Source of the DNA: Dehalococcoidia bacterium
GTDB lineage: Bacteria; Chloroflexota; Dehalococcoidia; SZUA-161
Direction of reading: 5' to 3'
NCBI GenBank assembly: GCA_011174795.1
Contig: DUEY01000007.1
Coordinates: forward strand, 70-64,069
DNA length: 64,000 nt
Shown here: positions 24,003 to 39,910 of the stretch, piece after piece
Layout: each line of letters opens with the position of its first letter
Numbering within the stretch: the first letter of the stretch is position 1
Notes under the pieces: generated by a model
Databases searched by the model: none
Seen by the model: only the letters and a program-made list of their open reading frames with translations
What the model was told of the DNA's origin: nothing
Program-made: the position numbers and the translations under genes

Positions 24003-24980
24003 TTGAAGAAAGGGCGGGTCTTCTCCGGAGCCAGGCCGACGGGCAGGCAGCATATCGGCAACTACCTGGGTGCTATAGATAATTATGTCAAGTTGCAGGA
24101 GCGCTACGACTGCATCTACTGCATCGTCGACGTCCACGCCCTCACCACCCTGGAGGACACCCATCTTCTCAAAGAGAACACACGCGAGATGATGCTCGAC
24201 TGGCTGGCTGCTGGACTCGACCCCGAGCAGAGCATCCTCTTCGTCCAGTCGCATGTTCCCCAGGTAATGGAGCTCCATACCCTGCTCAGCATGGTAACTC
24301 CCCTCGGCTGGCTCCTCCGCGTCGCCACCTTCAAGGAGAAGGTCAAGTCGCAGCCCCACAACGTCAACTACGGGCTGGTGGGTTACCCTGTACTGATGAC
24401 AGCGGACATCGTGCTCTACAAGGCAGACACCGTCCCGGTGGGCGAGGACCAGTTACCCCACCTCGAGCTGGCACGGGAGATCGTGCGCCGCTTCACCTAC
24501 CTGTTCGGCGAGGTCTTTCCCGAGCCCAAGGCCAAGCTGACCACTTTCCCCATGGTACTCGGGCTCGATGGGGAGAAGAAGATGAGCAAGAGCTACGATA
24601 ACGATATCGAGCTCGCCGCTTCGCCCGAGGTAACAATGCAAAGGGTGAAGACAGCGTTCACCGACCCCGCCCGCAAGTACCGCAACGACCCCGGAAACCC
24701 CGATGTCTGCAACATCTACAGCCTGCACCACTTCTACACGCCCAAACGGCTGGAGGACATCGCAACACAGTGCCGTGGCGCCCAGATCGGATGTGTCGAG
24801 TGCAAGGAACTTCTCGCCGAGGGCATAAACAAAGCCCTTGTTCCCTTCCGCGAGAGACGCGCTGAGATCGCCCGGAGGAAAGGGTACATAGATGAAGTCC
24901 TCGCCGATGGCGCCCGGCGCGCCCACGCTATAGCAAAGGAGACCATCAAAGAGGTCAGAGAGAAGATGGGGCTGCCATGA
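24003..24980 (+). CDS. trpS: Tryptophan--tRNA ligase
   Basis: TTG start. GARPTGRQHIGNYLG (HIGH region) and KMSKS are both present. Confidence 0.9.
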   Translation: MKKGRVFSGARPTGRQHIGNYLGAIDNYVKLQERYDCIYCIVDVHALTTLEDTHLLKENTREMMLDWLAAGLDPEQSILFVQSHVPQVMELHTLLSMVTPLGWLLRVATFKEKVKSQPHNVNYGLVGYPVLMTADIVLYKADTVPVGEDQLPHLELAREIVRRFTYLFGEVFPEPKAKLTTFPMVLGLDGEKKMSKSYDNDIELAASPEVTMQRVKTAFTDPARKYRNDPGNPDVCNIYSLHHFYTPKRLEDIATQCRGAQIGCVECKELLAEGINKALVPFRERRAEIARRKGYIDEVLADGARRAHAIAKETIKEVREKMGLP

Positions 24981-25780
24981 CCGCTTTGCCCCTGTCCACC
25001 AGCGGTAAGGAAGCTCTCGAGGTAGCGACGGCGGCGGCGAGGGAGGCGGGGGAGATACTCAAAGCCCGCTTCCGGGCAGAACGGCATGTACAGTACAAGG
25101 GACGAGCCAATATCGTCACCGACGTCGACCTTCAGGTGGAGAAAAGCCTCCGAGCCTTTATACAAGCAGAATACCCCGACCATAACATAGTCTCCGAGGA
25201 ATCCGAGCCCGTTGTAGGAGCATCGGACTACACCTGGATATTCGACCCCCTCGACGGGACGAACAACTACTCCTTCGGAATACCCTTCTTCGCCACCGTC
25301 ACCGCCCTGACCAGAGGAGAAGACGTCCTGCTGGGCATTGTGTACGACCCGCTGCGCGACGAGATGTTCTGCGCCGTAAAAGGGGAGGGGACAACACTCA
25401 ACGGCAGACCCGTCTCCGTTACCGGAAAAACAGCGGTCCGTAACTCGCTCATCGGCCTCGACCTGGGGTACGTCGATGATAAGGGGAAAAAGCTCCTGGA
25501 GTTTATCAGCAGCCTGTGGCCGAACATATACGCCTTCAGGATCATGGGCTCGGCAGCCCTCGGCATGTCCTATGCCGCCTGCGGGCTGCTTGACCTCTAC
25601 TTTCACGCACTGGTTTATCCCTGGGAGATAGCCGCAGGCAAGCTGCTGGTCACCGAGGCCAGCGGCGTTATTACCGACTGGGAGGGGAGACCGGTGGGGG
25701 TCGAAGAGAGTTCTATCATCGCATCAAACCAGGCCGTCCACGCCGACTTCCTCAGGCTGCTTCAAGCTACAAACCGATAA
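24977..25780 (+). CDS. Inositol-monophosphatase-family phosphatase (SuhB/HisN-like)
   Basis: WIFDPLDGTNNY metal-binding motif. ATGA overlap with the trpS stop. Confidence 0.8.
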   Translation: MTALPLSTSGKEALEVATAAAREAGEILKARFRAERHVQYKGRANIVTDVDLQVEKSLRAFIQAEYPDHNIVSEESEPVVGASDYTWIFDPLDGTNNYSFGIPFFATVTALTRGEDVLLGIVYDPLRDEMFCAVKGEGTTLNGRPVSVTGKTAVRNSLIGLDLGYVDDKGKKLLEFISSLWPNIYAFRIMGSAALGMSYAACGLLDLYFHALVYPWEIAAGKLLVTEASGVITDWEGRPVGVEESSIIASNQAVHADFLRLLQATNR

Positions 25781-33519: not shown

Positions 33520-34116
33520 TCATATGGTGCCTTTGGTACTGGGAACCTCGTCACCCCTTCGATTATCTATGCTGGTGGCGGTATCCAGCGCCTTCGCCAG
33601 TGCCTTGAACAGCGCCTCAACCTTGTGGTGGTCGTTGACACCGCTGAGAATCCTGGCGTGCAGGCTCAGCTTCGCCTCCGCGGCAAATGTTTCGAGGAAG
33701 TGACGCACCAGGTCGGTATCGAGGCCGCTGATATCCCTCCCCTCGAGTGGGGCCTCGATCACAGCGTAGCCTCTACCTCCCGCGTCAACCGCCACCAACG
33801 CGAGCGCCTCGTCCATAGGCACCGCCGCATGTCCCATCCTGACGATGCCCCGCCGTTCCCCCAGCGCTTTATCGAACGCCTGGCCCAGGCATATTGCGAC
33901 ATCCTCCAGGGTGTGATGCTGCCCCACCTCGAGGTCACCCTTAGCCTCAACCCCGATGTCGAACAGGCCATGCCTCGCTATCTGGTCGATAAGATGGTCG
34001 AGCATCCCGATGCCGGTGCTCGCCTGGCACTTGCCCGTACCGTCTATCACAAGCTCCAGTTTGACCTTTGTCTCGCCCGTCTCGCGGTTAACGGTAGCTT
34101 TTCTCCCAGCAGCCAT
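33520..34116 (-). CDS. hisB: Imidazoleglycerol-phosphate dehydratase (monofunctional)
   Basis: IGPD motifs ([29 protein letters not shown]). Start at the ATG 1 nt after the hisC stop, with GGAAGGAGGG upstream. No fused phosphatase domain. Confidence 0.9.
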
Positions 34117-34117
34117 G

Positions 34118-35224
34118 TTACCCTCCTTCCCACTTAGCCAGCGCTGCGACCAGAGCATCGCTGTGCTCCGGCTTGCCCACGCTTATGCGCAGCATATTCT
34201 TTAGAAGAGGTGTATCGAAGTGCCTGATAAAGATGCCCTGCTTCTCCAGTCCCTGCTTTATCTTCCGGGCATTGCCCTTAGCCACCCGGCAGAGGATGAA
34301 ATTCGCCTCGGACGGCAGCGGAGTAAGAACCCCCTGCCTTTTCAGCATGGATGAAAGACGCTTCCGTTCGTCGATGATATCCTTGACATTTTCCCGAAGA
34401 TAAACGATATCCGCCAGCGACTCCCTCATCGCAATCATCGCCGCTGCGTTCACATTGTAGGGCATCTTAATCCTGCGGACGAGTTCAGCAATGTTTGACG
34501 GGAAGATGCCGTAGCCCGCCCTGAGACCACCCAGCCCCGCCCACTTGCTGAACGAACGCAGGACTATGAGATTAGGGTTCGCCGGTACCAGAAGCGCGAA
34601 GGTCTGACCGCTGAACTCGTAATAAGCCTCATCTACCACCACGATCACCCCGGTTTTTAACAGCTCCAGGACAGCATCTGATTTCGTAACATTCCCCGTA
34701 GGATTGTTGGGAGAGGCGATGAAGACGACCTTGGTGCGTTTGTCGAGAGCCGATTTCACGGCGTCGACATCCACATTGTAGGCTTTGTCACGGGGGACGG
34801 TTACCGTCCTGCCCCCGCACACCGCCGTGCTGAACGGGTACATGCCGAAGGTGGGGACGCAATTTACCACCTTATCCCCGGGCTCGAGGAAGATACGCAG
34901 GATCAGGTCTATGAGCTCGTCGCTGCCGCTGCCGGCTACGATATATTCCTGTCCAACCCCCACATAGTCCTCCAACGGCTTCTGGAGCTCCCGGTGCAGT
35001 GGGTCAGGATAGATATGATAGAAAGGGTATTCCGCCAGCGCACGGCGCACACGGGGGGAGCAGCCGTAAGGATTCTCGTTTCCGTCCAGCTTGACCAGCT
35101 TATTAACAGGAACTCCTGAGAGCTCGCTGAGCGCCTCCAAGGGTAAAATAGGCTCATAGGGCTCAATACCCTTTACATCGCCTCTAATGAGGCTCTCAGC
35201 GCTTCTGCGGGCATCGTAGCTCAC
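34118..35224 (-). CDS. hisC: Histidinol-phosphate aminotransferase
   Basis: Class-II aminotransferase with the PLP lysine motif [16 protein letters not shown], in a his-operon context. Confidence 0.9.
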
Positions 35225-36513
35225 TCGCCGCGCTCCTCCTTTTCCATTTCTTCAAGCCTTCTCTCCACCGACAGGGCATGGCCTTGCAGTCCCTCAGCCC
35301 GGGCGATAGCCGCCGACGCCGGCCCGAGTTCCTGCAATGCCCCGTCATCAAGCTCGACCAGCAGTGACAGCTTGAGGAAATCGAGCACGCTGAGCGGCGA
35401 ACTGAAGCGGGCGGTTCCTCCCGTAGGCATGACGTGGCTCGGCCCGGCGGTATAGTCACCAAGCGCTTCCGGTGCCCCGACGAAGATACCCCCCGCATGG
35501 CGTATCCGGTCGATATAGGAACGCGCGTTACGCAGCATGAGGCAAAGGTGCTCCGGCGCGTACAAGTTCACCAGCTCAACAACCTCATCAATGCCTGCTA
35601 CGACAACGAGAGCACCATTACTCTCCAGGGCACGCCGCACGATAGGCTCGCGCTCCATGCCAGCAAGCTGCCGTTCTATCTCTTCGCGGACAGCATCCGC
35701 CAAACCAGTTGATGCAGTGATAAGTACAGCGCTAGCCATCTCGTCGTGCTCCGCCTGGGCAATCAGGTCGGCGGCGCAGAAGACGGGGTTTGCCGAATCA
35801 TCGGCGAGGATGACGGTCTCAGTAGGGCCGTATAGTCCGTCGATAGCCACCGTCCCGAAGACCTGCTTCTTCGCCAGCGTGACGAAGATATTTCCCGGGC
35901 CGCATATCTTGTCTACCTTGGGGACTGATTCGGTGCCGTACGCCATGGCAGCGATAGCCTGAGCGCCCCCGAGCTTGAAAATCCTGTCTACTTTAGCCAC
36001 GCTGGCGGCGGCCAGCGTAGGTGCAGGTAGAGAGCCATCGGGGGCCGGCGGGGTGGTCATTATCACTTCCCCAACCCCGGCTACACTCGCCGGGATAGCC
36101 GTCATCAGCACCGTTGATGGGTACGACGCCTTACCGCCGGGGACATAGATGCCCACACGCTCCAGAGACCGAACCACAAACCCCAGTCCACCCTCGAAGA
36201 ACTCCAGACCCAGATTTCGCTTCTGGGTCTCGTGAAAGCTGCGTATCCTCTCAGCAGCAAACTCGAGAGCATCCAGCAACTCCTTGCTCACCTTATCGCG
36301 GGACGCAACGACCTCCTGTTGCGGCACCTCTAACCGGTTAAGCCGCACACCATCTATCTTCTCGCTGTAGTCCAGAAGGGCTCTGTCCCCACCAGCGCGC
36401 ACATTCTGGAGAATCTGACGCACCGTTTCACTACGCGCATCTCCGGCTAGCTCCACAGGGGAGCGCTCCAGCAGGAGAGATTTCGCAGCTTCCAGGCCTT
36501 CAATTATCCTCAT
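35221..36513 (-). CDS. hisD: Histidinol dehydrogenase
   Basis: ICGPGNIFV and AQAEHD motifs. Length 430 aa. Confidence 0.9.
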   Translation of the reverse strand: MRIIEGLEAAKSLLLERSPVELAGDARSETVRQILQNVRAGGDRALLDYSEKIDGVRLNRLEVPQQEVVASRDKVSKELLDALEFAAERIRSFHETQKRNLGLEFFEGGLGFVVRSLERVGIYVPGGKASYPSTVLMTAIPASVAGVGEVIMTTPPAPDGSLPAPTLAAASVAKVDRIFKLGGAQAIAAMAYGTESVPKVDKICGPGNIFVTLAKKQVFGTVAIDGLYGPTETVILADDSANPVFCAADLIAQAEHDEMASAVLITASTGLADAVREEIERQLAGMEREPIVRRALESNGALVVVAGIDEVVELVNLYAPEHLCLMLRNARSYIDRIRHAGGIFVGAPEALGDYTAGPSHVMPTGGTARFSSPLSVLDFLKLSLLVELDDGALQELGPASAAIARAEGLQGHALSVERRLEEMEKEERGE

Positions 36514-37262
36514 CCCAGATACTCCCCGGCCACCCTGGCGGAATCAGCTACAGACTGCTCACGGAACTCACGGAGCCGCTCTTCCGGAACCAGTTCCAAA
36601 ACCTGCTTCAGCCTGTCGTCAAAAGACTCGAAGAAAGACTCGATCCTCTCGGCAGGCAGATACCTCATCCAGATGAGATATTTCTGAGCAAAGGTACTGA
36701 AATCATCCCAGCTCAATTCCCCGCTGGTAGCTATATACACGAACTCACGCCACCTGTTCAAGGTGATGGCATCGATAAAACCTACCGACACCTCCGAGTC
36801 CGAGCTGCCTATCTCCGAGCGAGCAGCCAATATGCTTTTACTATTGAGCCTCTCCCGGCGGTCGAGTTCGAATTGAAGCAGCCGGTCGAGGAGATTCGCC
36901 ATAGCATCCCCCCCGAGAGCAGACGACTTGCCAAAAAAAGGCCGGTAAATCCGGTAGAGCCAGACTTCATCGGTAACAAGGTGGGAAAGATAACCAGCGA
37001 TAAAAGCCTTCGTGGCACTGCTCAAGCTCGCATCATCGATAAGTTCCGGATAGGCTTCAAACATGAACTTCACACCGCTGGCCCCGTCCTCGCAGTTCAG
37101 AGAGAGGAAATGCGTCTCCTCCCGTCCGGCGCTGATGAAAAAGCGGATGTCCGGCGCCGTAGACCCGAGATAGTAGCTCCCCAGGTTACCTTCCACGACC
37201 GGATGGCGCAATCCCGATAACGCCTCCCGGGCGATCCCTAAATGCAGACAAATCGGAGGCAA
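36510..37262 (-). CDS. Uncharacterised metal-dependent phosphoesterase-like protein (zinc-dependent phospholipase-C-like His/Asp pattern) embedded in the his operon
   Basis: TTG start with AAAGGAG located between the hisG stop and the start. ATGA overlap with the hisD start. Motifs CLHLGIA, GSTAPDIRFF, ETHF and GYLSHLVTDEVW resemble the bacterial Zn_dep_PLPC-type family, from recollection. Confidence 0.55.
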   Translation of the reverse strand: MPPICLHLGIAREALSGLRHPVVEGNLGSYYLGSTAPDIRFFISAGREETHFLSLNCEDGASGVKFMFEAYPELIDDASLSSATKAFIAGYLSHLVTDEVWLYRIYRPFFGKSSALGGDAMANLLDRLLQFELDRRERLNSKSILAARSEIGSSDSEVSVGFIDAITLNRWREFVYIATSGELSWDDFSTFAQKYLIWMRYLPAERIESFFESFDDRLKQVLELVPEERLREFREQSVADSARVAGEYLG

Positions 37263-37274
37263 AAGGCTCCTTTC

Positions 37275-38687
37275 TCAAGAGACAGGGCGGGCCTCCACGC
37301 CCCGCCGCATTGCTTCAATAACATGCGATATCTTCTCTCTCTTGTCACGGCGTCTCATAGCCTCAGTGTTCCCGATGAGACACGCTGAGGACTCAAACAG
37401 GGTATCGATAATCTTAAGTTTGTGCTTGGCTATGGTCGAGCCGGTCTCGGTGTTCTCGATGAGGACGTCAGCATCCTCAGGCAAGAAGGCCTCGGTTGCC
37501 CCCCAGGTAGGGATAAGCTTATAGGGCACCAGATGGTTGTCAAGGGCGTATTTATCGGCTATGTTGACATATTCTGAAGCCAAGCGTAACGCGGAGTCTC
37601 TTCCTAGTCTTCTCAAATCCTTCGTGCTCGAAACCGGCAAATCCTGGCTGACCACAGCTACAATTCTTACCCAGCCAAAGCCGAGCTCAAGCACTTCCTC
37701 TACCGGGCTCGAGGGAAAGCGGAAGCGGTGATCCTGGAGCCAGTCCCTGCCGGTGATGGCCAGGTCGAAGCTACCATTGGCTACCTGAAGAGGCATGTCC
37801 TGGGGCCTGACAACCTTCACCGCAACGCCATCGAGGCCGATCCGGGGCCTTGTTGTCGGCCTGCCTACACTATAGCCCCTGATTCCAAGACCAGCCTTCT
37901 TGAGGAAACCGGCGGTGTGACGCTGCTGGTGACCATCGGGAAGCGCCAGATATATCCCAAACTCACCCTCTATCTGCCGCCTTGTTCCAGACCCAGCACC
38001 GATTTTCACAGCCTCCTCAACATCGGTAGCCACAACCTCCGCAGCAGATAGCGCCGATAGAATCCGGCTCAAGTCCTTACTCTCCAGGCTGTTCCTGTTC
38101 GCCACCAAGTATGCGCCGCCTCCAAGGATAGTAGCGACCGGAACGAGGCCCTGCTCCCGGAGTACGCTGGACGAGGCACCAGTCATTATCGCCAGTTCGG
38201 CATTCTCGGGGAGATACGCGCCGGCTGCTCCCCAAACGGGAAATATCTGGAATTTCCTCAGACGCTGCGTAAGGGCAAAGGACTCCGCCAGATTGGGGTA
38301 TTCAGTGACAATACGCAGACTCTCCGAACGGCTTTTCAGTTCCTGAAGCGAGCCAACCTCGGAAGAATCGGCGGCAACGGCGTAAAGATTCCGCTTCCCG
38401 TAGCCCAGGGCTTGAACCTTTACCACAGCATCGCTGTGGTATTTGACCAGCAGTTCCTCCACCCAGTCAAACCGGCATATACCCAGGTCGTAGTTCCCAA
38501 TAGCTACCTGGATGGCGATGTCCTTCTCGTGAAACACCTTTACGAAGAGACCAGGGGAGGCTTCGCACTGCGGCCGGTAGGAGCGCGACCCCTGGTCGTA
38601 ATCGCCGACGGCAAAGCCAGCTTCCTTCAGCAATACTGCCGTTCTATCCTGAAGCGGCCCTTTGGGCAAAGCAAGCTTTATTTGCAC
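37275..38687 (-). CDS. hisG: ATP phosphoribosyltransferase, tandem duplication of the short-form HisG catalytic fold (470 aa)
   Basis: The two halves (about aa 1-235 and 236-470) each follow the HisG-S pattern (LALPKG.., DL(G/A)I.G.DW, RI..EY.N.A, WGA..A.LPE.A). Only the C-terminal half keeps GATE and the PRPP loop TETGSTI. Confidence 0.8.
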   Translation of the reverse strand: MQIKLALPKGPLQDRTAVLLKEAGFAVGDYDQGSRSYRPQCEASPGLFVKVFHEKDIAIQVAIGNYDLGICRFDWVEELLVKYHSDAVVKVQALGYGKRNLYAVAADSSEVGSLQELKSRSESLRIVTEYPNLAESFALTQRLRKFQIFPVWGAAGAYLPENAELAIMTGASSSVLREQGLVPVATILGGGAYLVANRNSLESKDLSRILSALSAAEVVATDVEEAVKIGAGSGTRRQIEGEFGIYLALPDGHQQRHTAGFLKKAGLGIRGYSVGRPTTRPRIGLDGVAVKVVRPQDMPLQVANGSFDLAITGRDWLQDHRFRFPSSPVEEVLELGFGWVRIVAVVSQDLPVSSTKDLRRLGRDSALRLASEYVNIADKYALDNHLVPYKLIPTWGATEAFLPEDADVLIENTETGSTIAKHKLKIIDTLFESSACLIGNTEAMRRRDKREKISHVIEAMRRGVEARPVS

Positions 38688-39910
38688 CCCGCCTCCTTAA
38701 GGAGCTCCAGCACCTCGACAGGAGACGGCATACGCTGCTTCTTGCCGCTTGACTGGTCTATCAATTCGATCCCAGCCCCACTGCGCATATCGACTATCCA
38801 GCGAAAGTCAGAGGTCTCCTTGTAGCCCAGATCGAACTCTGCGATATAACCCGCTTCCCGTAAAAGCCGGGCTACTTCGAAAGAAGCTTTGAGCCCCTCA
38901 GCGTCCCTGGCCTTGACCAGAATCTTCTCCCGCTGCGGCGACTCCTTGAGCAGATCCGTCAGCTCGTCAACATAGAAGGCGAAGCCCGAGGCACGAACAC
39001 CCTTCCCTCCGACGAGATGGATCAACTCATCGTATCTACCACCCCCTCCCAGCCTGCGCCCCGAACTGTAGAACCCGAAGATTATGCCAGTATAGTATTC
39101 GAAGCCTTTCCCCGAGGTGAAATCAATCTGGTAGCTGTAGCCCAGATTGGTGAGCAAATCGGCAATCCTGGCCAGTTCACTAAGGCTGGACTCGAGGGCT
39201 GGCAGTGGAGCGGAAAAAACGTTCTTCAGGTTCTCCACAAAGCCGGGAGAGCTTCCCTTCAAGCCAAACAGCAGCTTCAACTGCTTCTCAACCTCTGGAT
39301 TTCCGCCCTTCACGTCATCCAGTACATCCATATTACCGGAGAATATCTTGTCCAGCACATCAGCCTCCTCCTCTCCACTTAACCCCAGTCCTTCGAGGAA
39401 AGTCTTCAGCAATCCGGCATGAGCCAGCCGGATCTCCACCGGCTCGATACCGAGCTCTGCCATAGCTTCCAGCGCCAGCGAGATAAGCTCAACATCACCT
39501 TCAGGCTTGCTGCCACCGATGAGCTCGGCTCCACATTGCCAGCGCTCCCGCGACTCCTTCCCTGTGCCCTCAAAGGCGAACATATTCTCCACATAGAAGA
39601 ACCTGACTATGGGCAGTTTCTGGAGGTTCTCCACATAGAGCCTGGCTGTAGGAATAGTTCCGTCGGGTCTCAATACCACCCGCTCACCGCTCCACCCGTC
39701 CCAGTCGAGAAAGGAGTAAACACGCCCCAGCATCTCCGGGGAGAGAGTTCCCGCAGAGGTGAAAAGGTGCAGGTATTCCAGTGTGGGAGTCTTGATCTCC
39801 TGATACCCCCACCCGAGACAGCAGTCTCTAAATCCCGCTTCTACACGGCGGAATTTCTCCATGTCCTGAGGCAGCAAATCACGTGTTCCCTTGCACCTCG
39901 GCACCTTCAT
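38678..39910 (-). CDS. hisZ: ATP phosphoribosyltransferase regulatory subunit (HisS paralogue)
   Basis: HisRS-like fold (GTRDLLP, LRPDGT, GGGGRYD), but the motif-2 FRYE arginine is replaced (FAFE). It overlaps the hisG start by 10 nt. A C-terminal anticodon-binding-like segment is retained. Confidence 0.7.
   Translation of the reverse strand: MKVPRCKGTRDLLPQDMEKFRRVEAGFRDCCLGWGYQEIKTPTLEYLHLFTSAGTLSPEMLGRVYSFLDWDGWSGERVVLRPDGTIPTARLYVENLQKLPIVRFFYVENMFAFEGTGKESRERWQCGAELIGGSKPEGDVELISLALEAMAELGIEPVEIRLAHAGLLKTFLEGLGLSGEEEADVLDKIFSGNMDVLDDVKGGNPEVEKQLKLLFGLKGSSPGFVENLKNVFSAPLPALESSLSELARIADLLTNLGYSYQIDFTSGKGFEYYTGIIFGFYSSGRRLGGGGRYDELIHLVGGKGVRASGFAFYVDELTDLLKESPQREKILVKARDAEGLKASFEVARLLREAGYIAEFDLGYKETSDFRWIVDMRSGAGIELIDQSSGKKQRMPSPVEVLELLKEAGCK

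Follow-up and report, generated by a model that had tools for sequence, protein, structure and literature searches.

Histidinol-phosphate phosphatase (HolPase) is the step of amino-acid biosynthesis that is most often left without an assigned gene (42 of 208 prototrophs, 20%; PMC13759103). This step has been filled repeatedly by unrelated protein families (PMC5516325, PMC5764234), and redundancy of HolPase isozymes is documented in other bacteria (PMC5516325, PMC12220765). The known HolPase families are HAD (HisB-N), PHP (HisJ/HisK) and IMPase (HisN). Here we analyzed a stretch of 64,000 nt, hereafter the window, from a Dehalococcoidia bacterium (GenBank assembly GCA_011174795.1, contig DUEY01000007.1, positions 70 to 64,069 of the forward strand). 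Its histidine operon contains an additional gene, for a protein of 250 aa that we call X. Sequence comparisons firmly point to a cytoplasmic protein that is under selection, occurs in single copy and bears a metal-site signature resembling that of phosphoesterases; its gene belongs exclusively to the his operon and accompanies hisD. X represents a real, undescribed enzyme-like family specific to this operon. It very probably acts in histidine biosynthesis, and the best single proposal for its reaction, which we make tentatively, is that of a HolPase.

The operon reads hisZ, hisG, X, hisD, hisC, hisB, all on the minus strand (Table 1). The TTG start codon of X, at 37262, lies 12 nt past the hisG stop codon (TGA, 37277..37275). 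The gap between the two genes (GAAAGGAGCCTT) contains a ribosome-binding site (RBS), AGGAG, and the X stop codon overlaps the start codon of hisD. A preliminary description of the same DNA had reported this placement of a gene without assigned function, with its 12-nt gap, RBS and ATGA overlap, and the sequence bears out every detail. The TTG start agrees with an alignment of X homologues, where the N-terminal MPP..H is conserved; the homologue families and the conserved start establish that the open reading frame (ORF) is real. Public gene calls for the family are often of 228-235 aa (P0001, P0040, P0042, P0098 and others), with a start placed about 17 residues late and loss of MPP..H7. Another entry, P0171, resembles a read-through gene call in which the C-terminus of HisG is joined to X. 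Gene fusions around X in high-GC genomes (long open frames) were rejected, X, hisG and hisD being in different frames.

The conservation of this arrangement was followed in two samples. For the locus survey one genome per species was taken and the best 80 of 195 relatives were kept, all of them Dehalococcoidia/Chloroflexota metagenome-assembled genomes. For the class, 201 evenly drawn Dehalococcoidia genomes were searched for X, HisD, HisJ, HisN, HisE and the tandem HisG. The hisD gene is located directly downstream of X in 76 of the 76 loci that extend past X, and the order hisZ-hisG-X-hisD-hisC-hisB is retained down to 36% identity of X. On a marine contig with X at 25% identity, the order is hisG-X-hisD-hisC-hisB. 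In 69 loci the end of X and the beginning of hisD could both be placed, and in 64 of them the stop and start codons overlap. In family f22 (locus L096) hisG is not adjacent and X still heads hisD-hisC, an arrangement that indicates the late pathway. Within the class sample hisD was found in 195 genomes, and X in 123 of those 195 (about 60%), nearly always in single copy. The linkage to his genes, on which the preliminary description had made its proposal depend, is strongly present throughout, and only more distant PLPC-like relatives escape it: those outside the class, and the distant ones inside, stand in contexts unrelated to histidine. Because of the constant linkage to hisD, and because the distant relatives are unlinked, X is a his-specific subfamily that arose within Dehalococcoidia. 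The unrelated contexts of these distant relatives would also fit a general phospholipase or phosphatase that has nothing to do with histidine and came to lie in the operon by chance. This is hardly credible, since all of the X-bearing genomes that were examined, even at 25% identity, have X in the same position, and X, single-copy and devoid of a signal peptide, is never found away from hisD. In the 72 hisD-containing genomes without X the operon is hisZ-hisG-hisD-hisC-hisB, with hisG abutting hisD. Genes occupying the slot of X in such genomes were considered as substitutes and rejected as mere insertions. At L101 (6871-8195) a HEPN-like small-gene pair stands between hisG and hisD, and at L104 (4120-7544) a MarR regulator, an amidohydrolase and a PAS-GGDEF protein stand between hisD and hisC.

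Clustered at 90%, the homologues of X amount to 570 proteins, a family of modest size; at 50% identity they form 384 clusters, of which 61 are below 1e-30. The preliminary description had associated four motifs, CLHLGIA, APDIRFF, ETHF and SHLVTDEVW, with a zinc-dependent phospholipase C (PLC)-like family. All four are found in X, and the family guess agrees with Pfam, although structure and PDB searches, detailed below, gave no neighbour. X scores 29.0 bits with PF00882 (Zn_dep_PLPC) against a gathering score of 26.8; the match covers residues 7-101 and only the first 96 of the 167 model positions. The same model is matched by 65 of 65 aligned members of the X family (E<0.01, best E 6e-10). 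No NCBIfam model matches X, and X gives no Pfam or NCBIfam match to the known HolPase families. Invariant or near-invariant residues of the family are P2, H7, G28, G33, P37, D38, R47, H51, G90, Y91, H94, D98, F110, D126, R127, Q130 and W171. Among these, H7, D38, H51, H94 and D98 are five invariant candidate metal ligands, and three Arg are invariant as well. The H...D...H...H-x3-D spacing presumably resembles that of the residues which bind two of the three zinc ions of PLC/P1 enzymes; a third-zinc His/His/Glu triplet is not conserved in the family. Taken with the PF00882 match, the pattern of His/Asp and three Arg looks like a phosphoesterase site. No signal peptide was found in the N-terminus of X (MPPICLHLGIAREAL), and family members share the start at residue 1. 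The AlphaFold2 model, a confident one, is all-alpha, with 14 helices (pLDDT 91.2, pTM 0.90). A comparison of X with an approximate sequence of P1 nuclease using hhalign was not significant (probability 0.15), and the only local alignment in this non-significant run placed H94 on the H-x3-D motif of the nuclease. The link of X to the PLC/P1-nuclease group therefore appears distant and partial; it comes from the Pfam model and the ligand-like pattern, not from a fold match.

With its invariant His/Asp/Arg set, the PF00882 match in all members and an evolutionary rate similar to that of HisC, X is a selected, enzyme-like protein. A non-catalytic role could nevertheless be imagined: X might bind metal and partner HisD, for example by delivering zinc or forming a complex, or might be a regulator that senses histidine. 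The X-hisD pair is invariant and translationally coupled, HisD is a zinc enzyme, and the occurrence of X bears no relation to that of any known phosphatase gene, as would be expected of such a partner. However, neighbouring his genes of the window overlap one another likewise, and the coupling is thus not peculiar to X and hisD. Moreover, HisD works without X in 72 genomes, and the His/Asp and Arg residues together with PF00882 would rather suit a phosphoesterase. We consider a non-catalytic role improbable.

The genome to which the window belongs (1.81 Mb, 76 contigs, 89.6% complete) also has hisH, hisF, hisA and hisI. It contains two HisF-like paralogues (C76:19442-20245 and C73:13720-14490); one of the two is downstream of hisH among glutamate-synthase-like genes and the other is beside a DUF-type regulator and a FAD oxidoreductase. 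According to the preliminary description, HisB is the monofunctional dehydratase and the HolPase step has no known gene locally. Both statements stand. HisB matches PF00475 and scores 287 bits with NF002116 (cutoff 269), and the bifunctional model covers only the HisB dehydratase half, leaving no HAD phosphatase domain. In the whole genome, neither a HisJ/PHP-type nor a HAD-type HolPase gave a match over cutoff; two weak PHP proteins resemble a CehA/McbA-type hydrolase and a nucleoside-bisphosphate phosphatase. The IMPase-family gene of the window does exist, as had been noted, but it is a weak HisN-type competitor for X. Its product, the sole IMPase of the genome, reaches 163 bits with TIGR02067 (HisN), against a cutoff of 275. 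By the motif 5 criteria of PMC5516325, its sequence (RIMGSAALGMSY...LLDLYF) is of the SuhB/ImpA type (GSAAL...DL), and the R-x-x-G-D-aromatic motif of HisN, required for HolPase activity according to Kulis-Horn et al. (PMC5516325), is absent from it. Since motif 5 is that of SuhB/ImpA and not that of HisN, this gene should not be annotated as a histidinol-phosphatase. Its start overlaps the end of trpS (24003..24980) by 4 nt.

We propose X as a HolPase because it precedes the gene of the histidinol-using HisD, with no known HolPase here or in 75 of the 123 genomes containing X. A further reason is that the step is prone to recruiting unrelated families and to isozyme redundancy. Finally, the substrate, histidinol phosphate, is a phospho-amino-alcohol similar to the head groups bound by zinc PLCs. 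In the mechanism that we infer, as regards metal binding, substrate and reaction alike, X would have been recruited from the zinc phospholipase C/P1-nuclease-like superfamily and would act in the cytoplasm as a metal-dependent phosphohydrolase. It would convert L-histidinol phosphate into L-histidinol, the substrate of HisD. H7, D38, H51, H94 and D98, possibly with the N-terminal residue, may hold a two-metal centre that would activate water and bind the phosphate. Arg47, Arg107 and Arg127 could bind phosphate oxygens, and the aromatic and acidic residues Tyr91, Trp101 and Asp126 could hold the amino-imidazole part. PHP-type HolPases also use a multi-metal centre. In genomes with HisN, X would act as a second isozyme.

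Several results weigh against this proposal. A strong HisN (at least 215 bits) is encoded by 34 of the 123 genomes with X and by 6 of the 72 hisD-containing genomes without it; the corresponding numbers are 14 and 0 for HisJ-like proteins, and 50 and 17 for HisE. A known HolPase gene (HisN or HisJ-like) is thus carried by 48 of the 123 genomes with X versus 6 of the 72 without. X does not occur preferentially where a known HolPase is missing, and the simple pattern of non-orthologous displacement predicted for a HolPase is not seen. Motif 5 of HisN was verified in representatives of families f16, f22, f30, f33 and f50. Nor is X confined to his operons lacking hisN: in 4 of the 4 f33 loci examined, a motif-verified hisN lies in the X operon itself, downstream of hisB. 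These loci (L089-L092, from G141, G169, G155 and G111) read hisZ-hisG-X-hisD-hisC-hisB-(hisH/hisA?)-hisN, and the encoded HisN has an actinobacterial-type motif 5 (R-G-Y/F-G-D-F-W-G-H), a genuine HisN co-operonic with X. Conversely, neither X nor a known HolPase is present in 66 hisD-containing genomes, whose operon is otherwise the same. Another solution therefore exists in the class, and the argument from a gap in the pathway is weak; at least one more HolPase, of a kind not yet recognised, must exist in these bacteria. The single-contig genomes of family f40 (1.4-1.9 Mb; G042, G063, G081 and others), for example, have hisD and the tandem HisG, and no X, HisN-like IMPase at E<=1e-35, HisJ or HisE was found in them. 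In a HisD tree of 132 genomes HisN arises at least six times in clades with X, and X is not lost; two X-less clades with HisN (f6 and f51) sit among clades with X. X changes state six times in this tree, which provides just 2-6 independent contrasts, so that neither an association nor its absence is statistically meaningful.

X shows no decay in lineages where it might be redundant. All 22 key positions checked (20 loci, 13 families) are kept or conservatively replaced, including in lineages with HisN, HisJ or HisE, and P2, H7, D38, R47, H51, H94, D98, R107, D126, R127 and Q130 are unchanged. The rate of X relative to HisD, taken by family as the ratio of ln identity, is not higher in HisN or HisJ lineages. 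It is 2.1 in f33, 1.7 in f16, 1.2 in f22, 1.9 in f46 and 1.1 in f27, families with a known HolPase, and 1.1 in f20, 1.1 in f30, 1.4 in f32, 1.1 in f43, 3.4 in f8 and 1.4 in f50, families without one. Relaxed selection on X beside HisN, HisJ or HisE was accordingly rejected, the key residues being kept and the rates patternless. An apparent speed-up of X in f33, considered as a sign of relaxed selection, is equalled in f8, which is without HisN. On the structural side, the best Foldseek match of the X model in the PDB had an E value of 0.66 and a TM score <0.3, with no PLC/P1 entry among the 50 matches listed; a search against viral models returned noise only. A profile search of PDB sequences gave one spurious match to a repeat protein and nothing else. 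The completeness of the genome, only 89.6%, also has to be kept in mind. Taken together, the genome comparisons neither confirm nor exclude X as a HolPase.

X persists next to a HisN that is verified and encoded in the same operon, and also in genomes that seem to have both phosphohydrolase steps covered. This is better explained by an accessory, as yet undescribed function, although overall we hold such a role to be doubtful. X would then catalyze a histidine-pathway reaction outside the ten textbook steps, such as metabolite repair, in which a side-product or a damaged phosphorylated intermediate is hydrolysed, or a regulatory hydrolysis, useful and dispensable. This could account for at least 23 genomes with HisN and either HisE or the tandem HisG (f33, f16, G139, G053 and G088), which have kept X, its site intact and its constraint no different; in seven genomes X, HisE and HisN occur together. 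The presence of X is independent of HisG type, HisE and HisN/HisJ, and its absence from 72 hisD-containing genomes with an otherwise identical operon is as expected for a non-essential helper. On the other hand, no such reaction is known for the histidine pathway and the data yield no candidate substrate that could be named. Co-occurrence with HisN, moreover, requires no new function, HolPase isozymes being documented elsewhere (PMC5516325, PMC12220765). A more specific version, which we regard as rather unlikely, is that Dehalococcoidia recruited the PLC-like scaffold for a reaction not yet recognised in histidine biosynthesis, for example the metal-dependent removal of a phosphorylated side-product or a control of flux into HisD. 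Such a reaction would explain why X is unchanged beside HisN and HisE.

A second phosphohydrolase step of the pathway also lacks an evident gene here, a point that the preliminary description had missed. HisI of this genome is monofunctional (113 aa) and encoded next to hisA on another contig. HisE was not found in the genome, where the sole PRA-PH-like match is an ordinary MazG of 258 aa. X usually follows hisG, and HisE is missing from 73 of the 123 genomes with X; X could thus be imagined as the phosphoribosyl-ATP (PR-ATP) pyrophosphatase of step 2, in place of HisE. However, HisE or HisIE is present in the other 50 of these genomes, and in f22 X stays beside hisD, not hisG. Some f16 genomes even have hisE-hisG-X in one operon. 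At L093 and L094 (G159 and G043) a hisE of 86-98 aa immediately precedes a single-fold hisG, and X-hisD comes next; in sister genera of that family hisZ and the tandem hisG are present and hisE is not. In addition, MazG-family enzymes can perform the PR-ATP pyrophosphatase step (PMC5764234), and one is present in this genome. What the absence of HisE tracks is the tandem 470-aa HisG, whose full-length relatives occur in 113 of the 201 class genomes. HisE was found in 1 of these 113 genomes versus 66 of the 88 others (Fisher p 1.6e-32, uncorrected for phylogeny), and both X and HisE are missing from 53 genomes with the tandem HisG. On this evidence HisE is lost in step with HisG architecture and not with X; what makes HisE dispensable may be the extra HisG-like half, or something co-inherited with the hisZ/tandem-hisG module. 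That X replaces HisE is consequently very improbable.

Table 1. Coordinates in the window of X, the neighbouring genes of the histidine operon and the IMPase-family gene
Feature	Position	Strand	Remarks
gene X	36510..37262	-	ORF; PF00882 match; predicted 250-aa cytoplasmic, metal-dependent-hydrolase-like, his-operon-specific subfamily of Pfam Zn_dep_PLPC
RBS AGGAG	37267..37271	-	4 nt upstream of the TTG start, within the 12-nt hisG-X gap; read from sequence
ATGA overlap, X stop codon / hisD start codon	36510..36513	-	read from sequence
hisD, histidinol dehydrogenase	35221..36513	-	invariant downstream neighbour of X
hisG, 470 aa, two tandem HisG folds	37275..38687	-	two PF01634/TIGR00070 stretches
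hisZ, regulatory subunit of ATP phosphoribosyltransferase	38678..39910	-	PF13393
hisC, histidinol-phosphate aminotransferase	34118..35224	-	translation; order conserved in relatives (PF00155 in locus L115)
hisB, monofunctional imidazoleglycerol-phosphate dehydratase, without phosphatase domain	33520..34158	-	PF00475 and NF002116 over cutoff
IMPase-family gene, SuhB/ImpA-type, not HisN	24977..25780	+	TIGR02067 below cutoff; motif 5; sole IMPase of the genome

Full-text literature searches returned no paper in which histidine synthesis is connected with PF00882 or with any PLC-like protein, and such an enzyme is not listed in the newest survey of pathway gaps. If X is a HolPase, it would constitute a new, structurally unrelated family for that step, and the phospholipase C/P1-nuclease-like group would gain its first member that is cytoplasmic and biosynthetic. 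False calls of histidine auxotrophy could then be corrected for the whole class, including marine SAR202. If its role is a different one, X would reveal an accessory function so far overlooked in a pathway that is among the best studied. The protein is small and appears soluble, and is directly testable either way.

Compared with known systems, X shares with the PHP HolPases HisJ/HisK (TIGR01856) the proposed reaction and a predicted metal-dependent phosphoesterase activity, and those genes too are often in or near his operons. However, their sequence and fold class are unrelated to that of X, and 14 genomes carry a HisJ-like gene in addition to X. The IMPase-type HisN (TIGR02067), which shares the X operon in f33, catalyzes the very reaction that we propose for X; the HisN fold is unrelated, and in 34 genomes HisN occurs alongside X and does not replace it. 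HisE and MazG (PF01503) are, as predicted for X, all-alpha metal-dependent phosphohydrolases, and HisE, missing here, belongs to the same pathway. In contrast to them X has no PF01503 match, and the presence of HisE follows HisG architecture. From the zinc PLC/P1-S1 nuclease superfamily (PF00882), typified by Bacillus cereus PC-PLC, X differs in being cytoplasmic, with no signal peptide, and in belonging to an operon for biosynthesis. The three residues that would bind a third zinc cannot be recognised in X, and its C-terminal 150 residues are outside the model match. Nevertheless, X is like these enzymes in its size of about 250 residues and its all-alpha structure, and in the region of residues 7-101 matched by the Pfam model in all 65 members. 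Its conserved N-terminus, moreover, recalls the N-terminal residue with which they bind zinc.

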